DNA from: Bacteroidales bacterium
Lineage (GTDB): Bacteria; Bacteroidota; Bacteroidia; Bacteroidales; SKPS01
Assembly (NCBI GenBank): GCA_046496455.1
Contig: JAWOGX010000204.1
Coordinates: 1 to 31,873, forward strand
Direction: 5' to 3'
Length of the DNA stretch: 31,873 bases
Below, piece after piece: positions 1,033 to 8,088 of this stretch (the stretch's first letter is position 1; each line of letters opens with the position of its first letter). The notes beneath the pieces were generated by a model. It had not been told where the DNA came from. It was given only the letters and a program-made list of their open reading frames with translations, and did no database searches. The position numbers and the translations under genes were made by a program.

Positions 1033-2619
1033 ATGAAAATGCTCCAATGCCTTTTGCCGGTGCAGTTATTCGGCTTTCTGCTCCTTTTGTTGCCGGCCAG
1101 CCTCACTGCAGGCTCCGGTACGATTAATTTTGTGGAGACTGAAGTTGTGCTGGGCGCTGACGGCAGTGCAGTAGTTACTTATACCGTGCAATATGAGGTG
1201 ATGATAGCTCCCTTGCACGGCTTTTATTTCAGGAATGAAGACCGCCTCACCATTTCCCGTTTTCTTGACAGTGCATTTGCTGTGGATGACTTTGGCATCC
1301 GCTATCCTCTCGAGATAAAGAAGCTCTCTCACAACTATTTCGATATACTGCTGGCCAATGGAAGGGGCGTGGACCAGGGAAAGGTCACCTACTTCTTTGC
1401 CTTTGAAACCAACTTCGCCGGTGCAGAATACCTGGCTCGTACCGTAAAGGATGACAGCACCGCCCTGATGGTGTTCAGCTGGGCTCCGATGGTCTGGGAT
1501 GAAGGATTCCGGCAATCGCATTATACCCTCCGCCTGGTGCTGCCCGTCACAGTCCCCGATGGTGTGGAGGCCCGGACCTGGGTGGAGGAAAACAGCCTGA
1601 TCCTCACCGAAATGTTCATGAATAGTGAATACAGGCTTGATTATCAGAAGAATAATAAAGGAAACCTGGTGTTTCTGGTGCACAGCGAGAATCCTCCCAA
1701 CAACTACCATATGAGGGTGCAGTTTTATATGCCTGAACGCTGGTTTGGGGAGGTCCCCACCAGGGAGGACATCCGGTCGGAGCAACGGAAGAAAGACTCG
1801 GGATATTACATCGGGGGGTTCAGCATCCTTGCCCTGATCCTGGCCGGGCTGATGCGCAGCAAGCAGAAATCGATGATCAGGGCGCACAAAGGGCTGAAGG
1901 ATGTGAGCTGGGACTCCCTGAACTGGGCACCACCAAAGCTGGTGCTGGCCAACTACCAGATTCCCGGAAAAATCTGCACCGACCTCACCATCCTCGAGGC
2001 CGCCTTTTACCTGTCACTGCCCGTCAACCGGATCCTGAGCGCCATGATTGTGATGCTCGAAGGGGAGGGATATATCGAAGTGACTCAACGAGACCCCCTG
2101 CGTGGAAAGGCGGTGCCCGGCGCAAACCTGAACAACCTTGATGAGTACGAATCAAAACTCTGTTCCTCCATAGCCAATGATGGCATCTTCGCACAGGATG
2201 AGCTCGAAGCACTCATGAACCTGGTGGTAACCAATATCCAGAAAAAAGCGTGGGATTGCGATGTGGAGGAGACCAAAAAACACTATGCACAGAAGCTGAT
2301 CGACTGGGGAAAACAAAACCTGGAAGGTGATCGGGAAAAGATGACAAGTCAGGATGATCTGTGGACAGCATGGTATTACGGCTATCACCCCAACGCATGG
2401 CGTTATGTCCATAAGGATCCATGGCAATACCAGGCTGATGTCCCCGTTGAAACCGATCACCTGGTCCAGGGAAGTTTACTTCATTCCGATCTGGTACTCG
2501 ACATGAATGTCTGCCACGACGCATGCCACTCCGCCTGTCACTCTGCCTGCCATTCCGCCTGCCATTCCGCCTGCCACTCTGCCTGTCACTCTGCCTGTGT
2601 CAGCGGCGGATCACATTAG
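1033..2619 (+). CDS. DUF2207-like membrane protein with a C-terminal (CHxA)n Cys/His repeat tail; putative radical SAM substrate
   Basis: Signal peptide (~aa 1-27). N-domain VETEVVLGADGSAVVTYTVQY...HGFY resembles the DUF2207 start. One TM (YYIGGFSILALILAGLM) is followed by RSKQK (positive-inside). WAPPK...DLTILEAAFYL resembles the DUF2207 cytoplasmic part. Ends CHDACHSACHSACHSACHSACHSACHSACVSGGSH. Confidence 0.8.
   Translation: MKMLQCLLPVQLFGFLLLLLPASLTAGSGTINFVETEVVLGADGSAVVTYTVQYEVMIAPLHGFYFRNEDRLTISRFLDSAFAVDDFGIRYPLEIKKLSHNYFDILLANGRGVDQGKVTYFFAFETNFAGAEYLARTVKDDSTALMVFSWAPMVWDEGFRQSHYTLRLVLPVTVPDGVEARTWVEENSLILTEMFMNSEYRLDYQKNNKGNLVFLVHSENPPNNYHMRVQFYMPERWFGEVPTREDIRSEQRKKDSGYYIGGFSILALILAGLMRSKQKSMIRAHKGLKDVSWDSLNWAPPKLVLANYQIPGKICTDLTILEAAFYLSLPVNRILSAMIVMLEGEGYIEVTQRDPLRGKAVPGANLNNLDEYESKLCSSIANDGIFAQDELEALMNLVVTNIQKKAWDCDVEETKKHYAQKLIDWGKQNLEGDREKMTSQDDLWTAWYYGYHPNAWRYVHKDPWQYQADVPVETDHLVQGSLLHSDLVLDMNVCHDACHSACHSACHSACHSACHSACHSACVSGGSH
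2512..2598 (+). repeat. 12-bp coding tandem repeat encoding CHDA-(CHSA)6-C
   Basis: tgc cac gac gca | tgc cac tcc gcc | tgt cac tct gcc | tgc cat tcc gcc | tgc cat tcc gcc | tgc cac tct gcc | tgt cac tct gcc | tgt. Differences among the six CHSA units are all synonymous. Confidence 0.97.
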
Positions 2620-2631
2620 AAGGATCAGCAA

Positions 2632-3966
2632 ATGAAGAAACACGACAGCGATATTGCGTGGATTGACGGGTATATCCGCCGTATCAGGCCGTATGTATGG
2701 GTGAGGACGGAAGACAATCTGCTGATCAAGCGTCCGAACGTGGCTACCCGCCTGAACCATACCGGTGCTGTCCTGCTGAAAGCACTGCTCGATGGGGTAC
2801 CTTTCAGGAAGGTGCTGAAACGCGCCGGCAGCCACAGGAAAGCAGAACTGCTCTCCTTCATGCTGGCTGTAAAGGGGTACCTGGAAGGGAACCTAGACCA
2901 GTTCACCCTGAATCCGGCCGTGGAACATGCCCCGTTTGAGATGAATTTCTCCGTTTTTCCTGTTCTGTCGGAGCTGGCCATCACCTACCGCTGCAATCTG
3001 AAATGCCGGTTCTGCTACGCCGGGTGCAATGGTATTGATGAGATGACAGGGAAGTACCCGGAACTCAGCACCCTGGAGCTGAAAAGGCTGATCCGGGTGA
3101 TCTTTGAAGAGGCCAGGGTTCCTTCCATCAGTTTCACGGGTGGCGAACCGATGCTGCGCAGTGACCTATGCGAGCTGGTTGCCTGTGCCAGCCGGCTGGG
3201 AATGCGTGTCAACCTGATCACCAACGGCACCCTGGTCACCAGCGAAAAGGCAATCAAACTCAGAGAGGCCGGCCTCGACTCTGCCCAGGTCTCGATCGAA
3301 GGCACCCACCAGGCATTGCACGAGGCGCTTACCGGGGTCCCCGGCAGTTTCGGGAGGACCTTGCGTGGCATCGATGCATTGCAGGATACAGGTATCCATG
3401 TGCATACCAATACCACCCTCAATGCAATCAACGCCGAAGATGCGCTCAACCTTCCTGACTTTGTGAAAACCAGGTTCGGATTCAACAAATTCAGCATGAA
3501 CCTGGTCATACCGGTTGGAAACACCACGCTCAACAGGGAAACGGTGATCCCTTACCACCAGGCAGGGGAATGGATTGAAAAGATCCGGGATGCTGCGGCA
3601 ACAGCCGGTGTTGAGTTTATGTGGTATTCACCGGTGCCGATGTGTATGTACAACACCATCACAGCAGGACTTGGCAACAAAGGATGCAGTGCCTGCGATG
3701 GCCTTCTCTCCGTGGCCCCCGACGGATCGGTGCTCCCCTGTGCCTCTTTCGATGAGGCGGTAGGAAACCTGCTCCGTGATCTTTTCCGTGAAATCTGGGA
3801 GTCAGCACGTTGCACCTTCCTGCGGGAGAAAGGACTCGCCCATCCCCATTGCACCAACTGCAAGGACTTCAGGATTTGCAACGGGGCTTGCCCGCTTTAC
3901 TGGGAGGCCATGGGCTGCGAAGAACTCGAAAGGTTGATTGAACAAACCAATACCGTAACGATATGA
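2632..3966 (+). CDS. Radical SAM/SPASM peptide-maturase-like enzyme with putative N-terminal PqqD/RRE-like domain
   Basis: CNLKCRFC (CX3CX2C), FTGGEP, LITNG and VSIEG core motifs. SPASM region: C...GCSAC...VAPDGSVLPC...CTNCKDFRICNGAC (CX2CX5CX3C). A ~95-aa N-terminal extension contains RLNHTGAVLLKALLDG. Confidence 0.92.
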   Translation: MKKHDSDIAWIDGYIRRIRPYVWVRTEDNLLIKRPNVATRLNHTGAVLLKALLDGVPFRKVLKRAGSHRKAELLSFMLAVKGYLEGNLDQFTLNPAVEHAPFEMNFSVFPVLSELAITYRCNLKCRFCYAGCNGIDEMTGKYPELSTLELKRLIRVIFEEARVPSISFTGGEPMLRSDLCELVACASRLGMRVNLITNGTLVTSEKAIKLREAGLDSAQVSIEGTHQALHEALTGVPGSFGRTLRGIDALQDTGIHVHTNTTLNAINAEDALNLPDFVKTRFGFNKFSMNLVIPVGNTTLNRETVIPYHQAGEWIEKIRDAAATAGVEFMWYSPVPMCMYNTITAGLGNKGCSACDGLLSVAPDGSVLPCASFDEAVGNLLRDLFREIWESARCTFLREKGLAHPHCTNCKDFRICNGACPLYWEAMGCEELERLIEQTNTVTI

Positions 3967-4913
3967 CCCAACAAAATTCCGCTCAGGACGATAATATCGT
4001 GGTTTACCATCTCTTCCGGAAAATGCCCCCTGCAAAACGGCTCTTGATAGCATTCTTCCTGATTGCAGCCGGCTTCGCCTTACAGTTTTATCTGGTGCAC
4101 TTCCTGCCGGGACTGCCCATTGCCATCTTCGGAATGGTGCTCCTCCTCGTTAAGGGGTACAGCAACAAAGTGAATTTCAAAGGGTATGATCCGTCAGCAA
4201 AGTGGGAGGTGGTTGATCGCTCTGCCCTCGAACAGGTCGTGGAACTGAATGTGAAGATGAAACGGTGGGCCAGGAGCGTTACAAGCATCTCCAGTGGCAT
4301 CGGTGCATTTGTTTTCTTCATCCTCCTGATCGGGTTCTTTATTCTGGCAATGGCTGCTTATGCGAATGGCAACCAACCGCTGTTGATCGTTGGAGTGAAT
4401 GCCGCTTTGCTGATCCTCCCGTTCTGGTTTTCCGGCAACAAGAAAGTGTTGACCACGCCACGGCTGGTGGTGAAAATCAAAGGGTTTCTTTATGTGCTTG
4501 ATCAATTGAAGGACAGGCTTACAGACCATAAAGTTGATTATTATCTTTTAAAAATTGGTGGGGAAAAGAAGATTCCGGATGATGTCAAAATCAGGGTGAT
4601 GTTTAAAGACCAGCTTGAAAATTTCCTGGGGATGTATGTCCAGATTTCGGTCAATAGTGTCAGCGGATCAGACTACCCATACTTATATGTGGTCTTTATC
4701 GCAAAGAAGGGATTTGGGCTGAAGCAGCGCTTCAACCGGGTCAGTGTGCCCCGGGGGGTCGTTAAGGAGTATGAGTTGAAGAATGATGTGGAGGTCATCG
4801 TAATCAGGCAACTCACGACCAAAACCAGCGGTTACCATACCAGGCCGGCTGCGATGATGATGCTTTTCGCTTTGGGCATTGATGAGGGGATGAAGGTTGC
4901 CGGCAGGCATTAA
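3963..4913 (+). CDS. Uncharacterised membrane protein (4 predicted TM helices plus soluble C-terminal domain)
   Basis: ATGA start/stop overlap with the rSAM gene. Hydrophobic segments LLIAFFLIAAGFALQF, LPIAIFGMVLLLV, IGAFVFFILLIGFFILAMAAY and LLIVGVNAALLILPFWF. Confidence 0.8.
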   Translation: MTQQNSAQDDNIVVYHLFRKMPPAKRLLIAFFLIAAGFALQFYLVHFLPGLPIAIFGMVLLLVKGYSNKVNFKGYDPSAKWEVVDRSALEQVVELNVKMKRWARSVTSISSGIGAFVFFILLIGFFILAMAAYANGNQPLLIVGVNAALLILPFWFSGNKKVLTTPRLVVKIKGFLYVLDQLKDRLTDHKVDYYLLKIGGEKKIPDDVKIRVMFKDQLENFLGMYVQISVNSVSGSDYPYLYVVFIAKKGFGLKQRFNRVSVPRGVVKEYELKNDVEVIVIRQLTTKTSGYHTRPAAMMMLFALGIDEGMKVAGRH

Positions 4914-5021: not shown

Positions 5022-7910
5022 TTATTCTTTTGTGCTCCTTGCCTGCTTTACAGTAACTGTTTCCGGTTCCCTGTCCCTGTCGGGGCGCACCTCTTCCTTC
5101 AGCTTTTCCTGCTCTTCGGGGGTGAGGTAGTTCATCCATGCCGGATCGCGTTCGTCGGGGTTCACCAGTCTCACCCATTCGGCGCGGTGTTCTTTAGGCA
5201 CCTCGCTGATGTCGGGATAGAGGAGGCGGTCGGTGTAGGCCATCGGGCTTTCGCGCAGCCTCATATCCTCGTAGCCCTGCCGTTTGGCCACGATCCGGAA
5301 GTCGAACGCGGAACCGTCACTGGCGCCAGGGGCGTGTACGATGAAAGAGGTCTCACCTTTTTCAACCCACCAGTTGCCAAGATTGGCATTGGGGGTAATG
5401 AAAACCTTCATGGGATGCTTGCTGCTGATGGTTACGGTTTGAAGAAAATCGGCAGGAACCTGAACCACAGCCATACCATTCTGGATGGTAGCATTTCCGA
5501 AGTCCTCGAACCAGTTTTCCGGCGACTCCTGGCAGTAAACCTCCCTGGGACCGTCAGGGGTTCTGACCACAGCACTTTTGGTCCCTGATCCAGCCAGCCC
5601 TCCAGTGTAATACACTCCATAACTGGGTGTTGCATTTGAAGAACTTAAACTGGCATAAACACCACGGGCGTAAGCGAAACCGCTTGAGGATGCCACACTG
5701 GTACTTGCATACAATCCATAAATATATCTGCCTGCAGTCCCTGTCTGATCGTCATCAGCTATTGCCCGGAAGGCATAAACTGAAGCATCGGAAGCTCCTG
5801 TCTTCTGAACGTCGGAGTATACGCCATAAGTAGTGTATGTGCCTGGTGTGGAATTATCGATGACGAACTGTGCGCCATAAAGAGTACCTCCGGCTGTCCT
5901 GTTGAAATTCAAAAAGACACCATAGTTGTAGTCATTTCCCGGATATAGCCCAAGCATGTCACTGGCATAGGTTGAACTTGTATTGATACCGATGGAGCTG
6001 CTCAGATCATCGATCATGAAGGTGTTGTCGGAGGACCCACCGTAGCCCCAGTTTTTGATCTGGAAGTCATTGCCTGATCCCCAGGTCCCTACAACCCATT
6101 TTTCAATGCCGCTGGAACGATAAGAGATAAAATGGTTGTGGGAGTCTGATCCTTTATCTAAAATTATATATGCGTCCCCTATCCCTTTGGCACGCACCCC
6201 TCCCGAAACATCCGTGTTGATATCCAGGTTGTACGAAGGGTTGGTATTGCCAAGCCCCAGCCTTCCTTGTGAGCTTTTCAGGTAGGCCTGGTCGTTGAAG
6301 TTGATGTCTACGGTACCACCATCGCCAATTTTTACCACGTCCGTGGTCCCTTCATAAAGGTCCAGCATGGTGGCATTTCCGGCCGTAAACTTTATCCGGT
6401 CGGGTTCAAAGTAGATGTAGGTGTCTCCATCCCCGTTGTGGAAAATGTAATCATTCACGCCAACATCGCCGTTCACCGTGAGCTGGCGGTCAGGGGTATA
6501 AGTGTTTATCCCTACCTTGCCTGTATTTGCCACCACCAGATCGGGGTAGCCGGTGCCGGAATTTTGCCCGGAAATATAGATGGCATCATTCGTAGCATTA
6601 TGATAGACCCATCCATCATATACACCCTGGTCATAGAAGGCGATACCTGCGTTGGCAAGTGTGGAATTCAGGTAGACAAAGGGGGTCTGGTCATCAATAA
6701 CAAGGTCTCCGACATTAAAAAGGTGGAGGGCATTGCCTGGTGTGGATGTACCGATCCCCAGTCTTTTGGTAGTATTGTCCCATACCAGGTCATTGGAGCC
6801 GTTGAACAAGCCGTTATCGTTGAATTGGATGTTTTTGTTGGATCCGCCTATGGGGGGCATTGGCCCCTGTGGCCCCTGGGGTCCCTGAGGTCCGGTGGGT
6901 CCGGCAGCACCGTCGTTGCCCGGAAGGCCCTGAGGCCCCTGAGGGCCGGTTAATCCGACAGGGCCCTGGGGACCTTGTGGACCGATAGGGCCCGTTGCAC
7001 CGTCGTTGCCCGGAAGACCCTGCGGCCCCTGAGGTCCGGTATTACCTGTCAATCCCTGCGGCCCCTGTGGTCCGATTGGTCCGGTAGCACCGTCATTGCC
7101 CGGAGGGCCCTGAGGTCCGGTTAATCCAATGGGGCCCTGGGGACCTTGCGGACCCATAGGGCCCGTTGCACCGTCATTGCCCGGAAGGCCTTGTGGTCCT
7201 GCCGGCCCGACCGGACCAGTGGCACCCGGAGGCCCTACTGCTCCTGTATCACCAGGGACTCCTTGTGGTCCCTGCGGCCCTGCTGGCCCTTGTGGTCCAG
7301 TGGCGCCGGTTAATCCCTGCGGTCCCTGTGCCCCAGTGGCGCCGGTTAATCCCTGCGGCCCCTGTGGTCCTGTGGCGCCGGTTAACCCCTGTGGCCCTGT
7401 GGCTCCCTGTGGTCCCTGCGGCCCTGTGGCCCCCTGCGGTCCTGTGGCCCCCTGTGGACCTTGTGGCCCCTGAGGCCCTGCAGGTCCCTGAGGCCCCGGT
7501 GTCTCTGAATTTTTTGAATAAAGGGCATAGGGCACACTGAGAAGTTCAGCCTCTCCCATATTTACATAGGATGTGCCTCCTGAAGGATCAATCTCTATCC
7601 GCAAATAGCGGCTGCCAGCACCCCAGTCTATTGTGGAGAATGTACCGGAAAGAACGGTCCCCCCCCCGATACCCAACGAAAAAAGACCGTAATCATTCGT
7701 GGTCTCCATATGGGATTCAGTATAAAGAATGTTCCCTGTGGGGGAGCCGTCCAGGATTGAAATCCTCAGGGACACACCCTGGTTTGCCAGTAGAAGGCCC
7801 GATCCGTCACGGGCTACTGCCTGATAGTTGAATTTTTCCGGAACCTGCCCTTCCAGGGAAAGTGTTGCGAGTACCAGGAAAACAAGAATGAGTCTTCTGC
7901 AATTTTCCAT
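5022..7910 (-). CDS. Secreted collagen-triple-helix / tail-fibre-like protein
   Basis: Signal peptide from ATG 7910 ([21 protein letters not shown]). Conserved Bacteroidota N-domain FNYQAVARD...SVPYALY. 71 Gly-X-Y triplets. Four (L/V/I)G(I/L)(G/N)T-type fibre motifs. C-terminal [11 protein letters not shown]...[13 protein letters not shown] domain. Confidence 0.85.
6858..7496 (-). repeat. Collagen Gly-X-Y repeat, 71 uninterrupted triplets
   Basis: Counted from the translation (GPQ...GPM). Includes four higher-order G(L/P)PGNDGA(T/A)GPxGPQGPQG units. Confidence 0.95.
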
Positions 7911-8088
7911 GATAATAAATTTAGTTTGAGTAGATTGATAATGAATAACTACACGACTAAAATACAACTGAAAAGAGGAAAAAGCAAATGAATGCTGAAA
8001 TTTTTGGGAATGTTCATCCCTGGCGAATGATCAAAAGTAACGACGAAACATCAAAATATAGCTATGACCAGATGTTAACTATTTTTGA

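Follow-up and report, generated by a model that had tools for sequence, protein, structure and literature searches.

The stretch of DNA analyzed here (contig JAWOGX010000204.1 of the Bacteroidales bacterium assembly GCA_046496455.1, 31,873 nt, referred to below as the window) encodes a membrane protein that ends in a run of four-residue units, most of them Cys-His-Ser-Ala, followed directly by the gene for a radical S-adenosylmethionine (SAM) enzyme with a SPASM domain. This raises the question of whether such a repetitive tail is maintained as protein or is a by-product of slippage in a short DNA repeat, and, if it is maintained, whether the neighboring enzyme acts upon it. The tail, CHDA-(CHSA)6-CVSGGSH, is encoded at positions 2512-2616 of the forward strand, which are the last 35 codons (residues 494-528) of gene 1 (1033-2619, forward strand). 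Judged from the codons of its orthologues, the tail is under purifying selection at the protein level and is not a product of slippage. Its invariance and the radical SAM enzyme that adjoins it suggest that the protein receives, on its own C-terminal end, a modification not described before, and the tail would then be a core substrate carried in cis.

Conservation of the tail

An earlier note, drawn from the letters of this DNA alone, had described six CHSA units that differ only synonymously and eight Cys residues at exact i,i+4 spacing, each of the first seven followed by His. Direct reading of the codons at 2512-2616 bears out both statements exactly and places the stop codon that closes the open reading frame (ORF) at 2617-2619. 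Variation among the six CHSA units is confined to three sites (unit positions 3, 6 and 9), all of which are third codon positions with synonymous alternatives (TGC/TGT, CAC/CAT and TCC/TCT). Tandem Repeats Finder describes the tail DNA as a repeat of period 12 with 7.2 copies. The chance of all three sites falling at third positions is about 0.04, and the window taken by itself is a weak signal.

Relatives of the gene were collected by scanning one genome per species. This identified 271 genomes encoding a relative of gene 1, and 80 loci were retained; gene neighborhoods were compared in 84 loci, tail units and Met positions were counted in 81, and membrane topology was evaluated in 58 orthologues. 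The relatives come from about 15 phyla and include members of Bacteroidota, Acidobacteriota, Gemmatimonadota, Thermodesulfobacteriota, Calditrichota, Verrucomicrobiota, Actinomycetota, Cloacimonadota, Spirochaetota, Elusimicrobiota, Omnitrophota, Bacillota, Lentisphaerota, Hydrogenedentota, Bdellovibrionota and Gammaproteobacteria, with a single cultured carrier, Desulfobulbus alkaliphilus DSM 24258. A protein search recovered 32 homologues, and almost all of the full-length ones finish in (ACH-x)n-ACVS-G-x.

The 32-residue core CHDA(CHSA)6CVSG is identical, letter by letter, in 52 loci from about ten phyla (Bacteroidota, Acidobacteriota, Gemmatimonadota, Actinomycetota, Calditrichota, Verrucomicrobiota, Desulfobacterota and Cloacimonadota, as well as Gammaproteobacteria), and the proteins that carry these identical tails share only 45-50% identity with the window protein. 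Among the 52 tails, codon positions 1 and 2 are 98% identical and position 3 is 43% identical, with Ser codons alternating between the TCN and AGY families. The same pattern is found over short distances, as all 15 of the 15 listed tail variant sites in environmental contigs that are 90-99% alike are third positions. The tree of the gene 2 enzyme mostly tracks phyla, and the path from the window to its nearest relatives exceeds one substitution per site, indicating that the identity of the tails is old and not due to recent transfer.

The reading of the repeat as a recent slippage product, or as low-complexity filler with no specific function, has in its favor that a 12-nt tandem repeat is indeed present. 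It is contradicted by a protein sequence that is identical in 52 genomes despite saturated silent sites, and by the comparison of the units themselves. Silent-site likeness of units within the same gene (0.46) is barely higher than that of units from different genomes (0.41), and units of one gene are about as unlike as units from different phyla, which argues against concerted evolution or recent slippage. Neighboring units are in fact less alike at silent sites than expected from shuffled order (0.412 versus 0.463, with none of 2000 permutations as low). Silent-site saturation, the unit comparison and the permutation test together refute slippage or filler, to which we assign a negligible probability, and the protein-level selection proposed in the earlier note is borne out.

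The low silent likeness of adjacent units, seen at 2524-2595 of the window and in the 51 other loci, resembles codon scrambling. To judge from these codons, the scrambling looks like selection against slippage-prone DNA while the repeat in the protein stays perfect.

Variation among the 81 tails is narrow. The units counted are CHSA (472), CHDA (92), CHNA (14), CHGA (14), CHAA (6) and CHQA (1), and the final unit is invariably C-V-S-[G/S]. The unit thus has a constant Cys, His and Ala around a variable third residue; rare metagenomic exceptions replace His by Pro or Gln, or Ala by Glu, and Cys is never replaced. Repeat number, which the earlier note had suggested comparing across orthologues, is likewise stable, with eight Cys in 58 of the 81 loci and nine or ten in the remainder. 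Some clades have an additional unit such as C-Y-V-H-T-A or C-F-x-H-S-A.

Frameshifted or decayed repeats in orthologues, which the same note had named as a possible refutation, were looked for, and three apparent cases were found. As called, the genes of P0001, P0008 and P0003 have tails that are truncated or run out of frame; when checked at the DNA level or by translation, all three retain the tail reading. A perfect CHDA(CHSA)6CVSGGSH is encoded in another frame of contigs L001 (7350-7620) and L086 (6280-6684). Contig L001 also bears a DNA polymerase gene that is split in pieces, and the presence of other broken genes makes assembly indels, rather than decay of the tail, the likely cause. 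On this sequence evidence, the frameshifted tails look like assembly or reading-frame artefacts.

Two environmental observations concern the tail itself. A freshwater-sediment contig from run X2, corresponding to window positions 2521-2588, is of low depth and derives from a relative with a longer tail, which has about four more 12-nt units than the window and the end CVSGGGH. Contigs from a sediment metatranscriptome library span positions 1507-2583, including the tail, which hints weakly that the gene may be expressed.

The linked enzyme and the carrier protein

Gene 2 (2632-3966, forward strand) begins 12 nt downstream of gene 1 and is located directly after it in 80 of the 84 loci; gene 3 (3963-4913, forward strand), which overlaps gene 2 by ATGA, is present after gene 2 in 72 of the 84. 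With one exception, described below, loci that deviate from the full cassette order are located at contig ends. The three genes are strictly linked across phyla. The tail thereby proves to belong to a strictly conserved cassette. All-versus-all clustering of the flanking ORFs of the 84 loci yielded no further conserved neighbor, and in particular no protease and no exporter or transporter.

Gene 2 encodes a 444-residue protein for which the AlphaFold2 (AF2) model has a mean predicted local distance difference test score (pLDDT) of 90.6. Pfam searches place both Radical_SAM (96.5 bits) and SPASM (34.4 bits, residues 352-411) above their cut-offs. The CX3CX2C motif of the radical SAM cluster (C121, C125 and C128, positions 2992-3015) is invariant in 51 orthologues, and the Cys residues of the SPASM region (338, 352, 355, 370, 407, 410, 416 and 420, positions 3643-3891) are invariant or nearly invariant in the same set. 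The N-terminal domain (approximately residues 1-90, positions 2632-2901) resembles the recognition element of enzymes that modify peptides synthesized ribosomally and modified post-translationally (RiPPs), the RiPP recognition element (RRE). It consists in the model of three strands followed by three helices (E22-25, E30-33, E37-40, H43-53, H58-65 and H67-84, i.e. a beta3-alpha3 arrangement). Pfam PqqD does not match gene 2, and the recognition element is supported by fold and not by sequence.

The nearest structures in PDB are the RiPP maturases SkfB (Z 27, 26% identity) and SuiB (Z 26), and gene 2 aligns to full-length SuiB from residue 10, across the SuiB recognition element. Next, at Z 23, come CteB and ChlB, a triceptide synthase (ChlB at 23.4, aligned only from residue 106), and ChlB gives no phmmer match from gene 2. 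The protein reaches no NCBIfam equivalog cut-off. For a predicted complex of the gene 2 enzyme and the C-terminal part of the carrier (residues 455-528), the score was 0.00 and the partner pLDDT about 25, which is evidence in neither direction. The window's genome, which is 75% complete, contains one copy of gene 2.

The carrier, the 528-residue DUF2207-like membrane protein encoded by gene 1, is modeled at pLDDT 85 and identified by its ORF and homologues. It starts with a hydrophobic signal or anchor (approximately residues 1-29, positions 1033-1119), hydrophobic in the 58 orthologues and a helix at 2-23 in the AF2 model. This is followed by a predicted extracytoplasmic beta-sandwich of the DUF2207 N-domain type (residues 28-234, positions 1114-1734, strands with pLDDT above 90) and by a single transmembrane (TM) helix (approximately residues 258-274, positions 1804-1854, from hydropathy and an AF2 helix at 244-288) with the basic stretch RSKQKSMIRAHKGLK after it. 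A cytoplasmic domain, helical or winged-helix-like, is predicted for residues 296-476 (positions 1918-2460; AF2 elements at 320-458, pLDDT above 90). Between this domain and the tail lies a leader-like linker (residues 470-493, positions 2440-2511) that is conserved in clade-A orthologues with the consensus P..(3)DH...G....D.....NV. From residue 478 on, the tail included, pLDDT falls below 50. The linker is a candidate docking segment for the RRE.

Similarity to known families supports this arrangement to varying degrees. Pfam PF09972 is reached by one orthologue (P0003, 27.7 versus a cut-off of 24.4); other orthologues remain below the cut-off and the window protein has no match, nor does the gene 1 sequence match any entry in PDB. 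In a Foldseek search against PDB, M1 aminopeptidases and oligosaccharyltransferase (OST) subunits come out on top over about 230 aligned columns; these matches probably belong to the N-terminal beta-sandwich, the aligned part of the model not being reported. ESM Atlas matches for the cytoplasmic domain are DUF2207_C (PF20990) and GPP34 clusters, and we treat a possible resemblance of the modeled domain to either as a lead only.

Mean net charge in the 58 orthologues is +2.0 on the C-terminal side of the TM helix and +0.5 before it. The more positive charge after the helix suggests an N-out/C-in topology with a cytoplasmic tail, and with the C-terminus inside, the tail and the enzyme would share a compartment.

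Gene 3 encodes a 316-residue protein with four TM helices. Neither Pfam nor NCBIfam gave a match and no known fold was matched, with ESM Atlas returning hypothetical clusters only. Its conserved motifs are GNLLLLVKGYDNR, PHWFTG-R and IRQ-TTK-SGYHT, and it has no conserved Cys or His. The one departure from cassette order that is not located at a contig end is that of a Cloacimonadota genome, which encodes the tail protein at L019:5001-6632 and genes 2 and 3 at L088:1423-3822. In this split cassette genes 2 and 3 sit behind a 151-residue membrane protein, and all parts are retained.

The remaining neighbors vary among lineages. The ORF upstream of the cassette (361-930) is not kept in any related locus, which places it outside the cassette. 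On the other side, the reverse strand at 5022-7967 encodes a secreted protein of 981 residues with a long uninterrupted collagen-like G-x-x stretch; this gene adjoins the cassette in the window and is not kept beside it in other loci. NifU-like and NifS-like genes are located directly downstream of the cassette in the Elusimicrobiota loci L066, L078 and L080-L082 and on the P0010 contig. This adjacency, seen in 6-7 loci of one clade, may be lineage synteny.

Proposed modification of the tail and alternatives

We consider it quite likely that the tail is the substrate of the gene 2 enzyme, and likely that the explanation as a whole is correct, namely that the cytoplasmic tail is an in-cis core which the adjacent enzyme modifies into rings. 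The tail would act as a core peptide on the cytoplasmic C-terminus of a single-pass DUF2207-like protein. The RRE-radical SAM/SPASM enzyme would probably dock on the conserved segment immediately before the tail and work through the four-residue units in succession, most likely forming one small ring in each. The preferred ring is a thioether from the Cys sulfur, for which the acceptor would be either the invariant Ala at i+3, comparable to the C-x-x-acceptor ranthionines of CrpA described below, or the invariant His three residues upstream, in the manner of the NxxC type. Either thioether would give about seven contiguous rings displaying an imidazole ladder. The product would remain on the membrane protein, because the cassette includes no protease or exporter, and the four-TM protein of gene 3 would be a membrane partner. 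More tentatively, about seven contiguous enzyme-made rings could turn the tail into a rigid ladder, tethered to the protein and made up of imidazoles or thiols, which would serve as a protein-derived metal or redox cofactor or as a signalling element, not as a secreted natural product, and would be unchanged across more than ten phyla of mostly anaerobic bacteria.

The earlier note had offered two chemistries for the tail, a cyclophane between His and Ala or a thioether on Cys. Both fit the invariance of Cys, His and Ala next to a variable third residue, and the sequence selects neither. A third topology, from Cys to the His three residues upstream, would fit the pattern equally well by analogy with the NxxC type. 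That Gly is tolerated at the third position of the unit argues against this residue as a beta-carbon acceptor. Related tails show Tyr or Phe after Cys in place of His (CYVH, CFxH and C-[F/Y/H]-x-x), suggesting that an aromatic ring after Cys matters as such; this pattern modestly favors a His-C2/Ala cyclophane and the Cys-to-upstream-His link. Given that the tail is the substrate, we see about an even chance of a thioether, and regard a His-x-Ala cyclophane and some other chemistry each as somewhat improbable.

Several points count against the proposal as we prefer it. The modification of the tail is itself something that we infer, and runs of Cys and His are classic ligands of metals and clusters that could function without modification. 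Gene 2 falls within no curated family, and its top NCBIfam scores, which are all far below cut-off, are those of radical SAM enzymes from heme pathways (AhbD 150 bits, NirJ2 140), with lower scores for the sacti- and ranthipeptide synthases StsB (89, cut-off 625) and PapB (73, cut-off 340). The replacement of His by Tyr or Phe is odd for a pure ladder of metal ligands and favors a role for the aromatic ring. Finally, the tail is modeled with the low confidence given above, and the positive-inside signal of the carrier is only moderate.

Among complete alternatives, a triceptide-like enzyme would join C2 of each His to the beta-carbon of Ala at i+2, giving seven three-residue cyclophanes and a free ladder of Cys thiols that could hold a metal or cluster. 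The precedent to which the earlier note had appealed is real, as HaaB forms exactly this His1-C2 to Ala3-Cbeta link in a cyclophane on an HAA motif (PMC11499958). The aromatic1-X2-X3 logic is matched by seven H-x-A motifs with Cys on either side of each, with invariant His and Ala and a middle residue that is S, D, N, G, A or Q at the counts given above, and the Tyr or Phe of related tails may mean that aromaticity rather than metal ligation is kept. Radical SAM enzymes encoded beside one C-[F/Y/H]-x-x tail also score best to the cyclophane synthases DarW, DynA and GrrM/OscB; gene 2, however, is just 23% identical to those enzymes, and no cyclophane-synthase family is found among its best 25 of 86 NCBIfam matches. 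The Z score of ChlB is below the 26-27 of SkfB and SuiB, with the alignment limited as noted, and this chemistry would leave Cys unexplained as the most invariant residue. We consider it unlikely.

Quite unlikely, in our view, is an unmodified metal, Fe-S or redox module, with the radical SAM enzyme acting on another substrate or using the tail only to donate a cluster or electrons. Such a module would resemble the His/Cys-rich tails of metallochaperones. The 35 residues include eight Cys and eight His, classic ligands that would be suited to it, and the NifU and NifS genes downstream in Elusimicrobiota would agree with it, but that neighborhood is limited to the few loci of one clade. Moreover, metal-binding tails usually vary in their length and sequence, whereas here all residues, Ser and Ala among them, are fixed across phyla; the enzyme has an N-domain of the peptide-recognition type, and its linkage to the tail is essentially obligate. 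The remaining alternative concerns the substrate and not the chemistry: an in-frame ATG (Met491, 2503-2505, forward strand) might start a 38-residue precursor (MNVCHDA...GGSH) that would be the true RiPP substrate. The ATG exists, as the earlier note had pointed out. It is not conserved, however, with Met in only 16 of the 81 orthologues (Leu in 21 and Ile in 20), and the bases ahead of 2503 contain no purine-rich ribosome-binding stretch. A phmmer search with the 38-residue peptide against 1.84 billion representative proteins returned full-length orthologues, C-terminal gene fragments, one 229-residue carrier and looser Cxxx-repeat proteins, and no free peptide of similar size. As there is also no conserved protease or exporter in the 84 loci, this part of the note does not hold up and a stand-alone precursor is very improbable.

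The enzyme-modified in-cis core that we prefer would be of interest in several respects. Most of what is known of radical SAM/SPASM enzymes concerns the tailoring of short secreted peptides, and to our knowledge very few cases of enzymatic crosslinking of whole proteins have been documented, namely QhpC and, in 2026, CrpA. Here the presumed substrate tail is perfect to the letter in a protein that has otherwise diverged by half, and the cassette is present in at least 271 species genomes from about 15 phyla. Such extreme constraint implies a use for each residue of the unit, either in recognition by the enzyme or in the product. The chemistry, once solved, would establish a membrane protein as the carrier of a new post-translational modification and give a first function to one branch of the large DUF2207 family, and a compact, repeatable C-H-x-A ring-forming unit could serve peptide engineering. 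With D. alkaliphilus DSM 24258 as a cultured carrier, the question lends itself to a direct test.

Comparison with known systems

Triceptide synthases (HaaB, HtkB and ChlB) act on an aromatic1-X2-X3 motif that equals the seven H-x-A units of the window. They differ from the system described here in that gene 2 carries an RRE and looks only distantly related to them, and in that triceptide motifs are without Cys.

Ranthi- and sactipeptide systems (SCIFF/CteB, freyrasin PapA/PapB and SkfA/SkfB) are similar in that RRE-radical SAM/SPASM enzymes act on Cys-rich cores, and SkfB, the nearest solved structure to gene 2, is a thioether synthase. The SCIFF core includes C-Q-S-A-C, in which the Cys spacing is i,i+4, and PapB forms a repeating series of six local thioethers. 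In these systems the precursors are short and bear a leader, whereas here the core is fused to a membrane protein of 493 residues, and the short precursor with cleavable leader and protease or exporter by which sacti- and ranthipeptides are recognized is not seen in the 84 loci, which have no conserved protease or transporter.

A parallel for a protein-sized target is CrpA of Methanococcus voltae, a large Cys-rich protein on which the SPASM radical SAM enzyme CrpC installs Cys-to-(i+3) ranthionines; the rings are located in CAGM, CAVD and CPLV, and leader cleavage has not been shown (PMC13692751, 2026). This pair shares with the cassette an RRE-radical SAM/SPASM enzyme and a large Cys-rich protein as target in place of a short peptide. 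CrpA is soluble and built of 17-residue repeats, whereas the window tail consists of contiguous four-residue units that contain His, and TIGR04463, the family of CrpC, is absent from the best 25 of the 86 NCBIfam families matched by gene 2.

The carrier has its own relatives, as DUF2207 proteins (PF09972 plus PF20990) have the same order of signal, beta-sandwich, TM helix and cytoplasmic helical domain. The window protein is below the PF09972 cut-off, and the Cys-His tail and the linkage to a radical SAM enzyme are specific to its subfamily.

The nearest curated families are those of the Cxxx-repeat radical SAM targets (TIGR04117, TIGR04114 and PF27846), which likewise have a C-terminal repeat with Cys at each fourth residue (eight to ten in the orthologues of the window tail) and are likewise encoded beside a radical SAM/SPASM enzyme (here across a 12-nt gap). 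TIGR04117 and TIGR04114 are annotated by prediction only, and a literature search turned up no publication about these two families or the present cassette. The tail scores 15.5 bits in its alignment to TIGR04117, whose cut-off is 50, and the tail protein is thus not a member; the window protein matches neither TIGR04114 nor, in a Pfam scan, PF27846, for which weak precomputed matches exist in three orthologues only. A TIGR04117 search of 401 Desulfobacterota genomes gave one weak match, at 28 bits. This match (L087:561-1028) and its paralogue (3-359) are small proteins encoded on a short contig, both with a signal like that of twin-arginine translocation (Tat) and G-G-C-T-x-x-C repeats.

Other Cxxx tails were observed beside enzymes of this type. 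In a marine metagenome (L089:366-4195), a different protein of 229 residues ends in C-[F/Y/H]-x-[A/N/Q/S] units and is followed by two radical SAM/SPASM genes, whose best, weak family matches are DarW, DynA and GrrM/OscB. At L091:1357-3900, a C-Y-D-S repeat protein that reaches TIGR04114 is located directly after a radical SAM/SPASM gene, and P0033-P0037 and P0053 have other long Cxxx repeats, among them C-Y-D-S and C-E/Q-x-x runs that extend over hundreds of residues. By analogy, the C-Y-D-S and C-[F/Y/H]-x-x tails beside radical SAM/SPASM genes may be taken as precedents for reading such a tail as a substrate.

The weak relatives in the Cxxx class observed in other genomes are either small proteins with a Tat signal or long repeats of the C-E/Q-x-x and C-Y-D-S types, whereas here an A-C-H-x repeat is located on the predicted cytoplasmic end of a membrane protein of about 530 residues. 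The system is therefore best described as a variant within the Cxxx-repeat radical SAM-target class, marked by its A-C-H-x unit, its fusion to a DUF2207-like protein and its dedicated third membrane protein.

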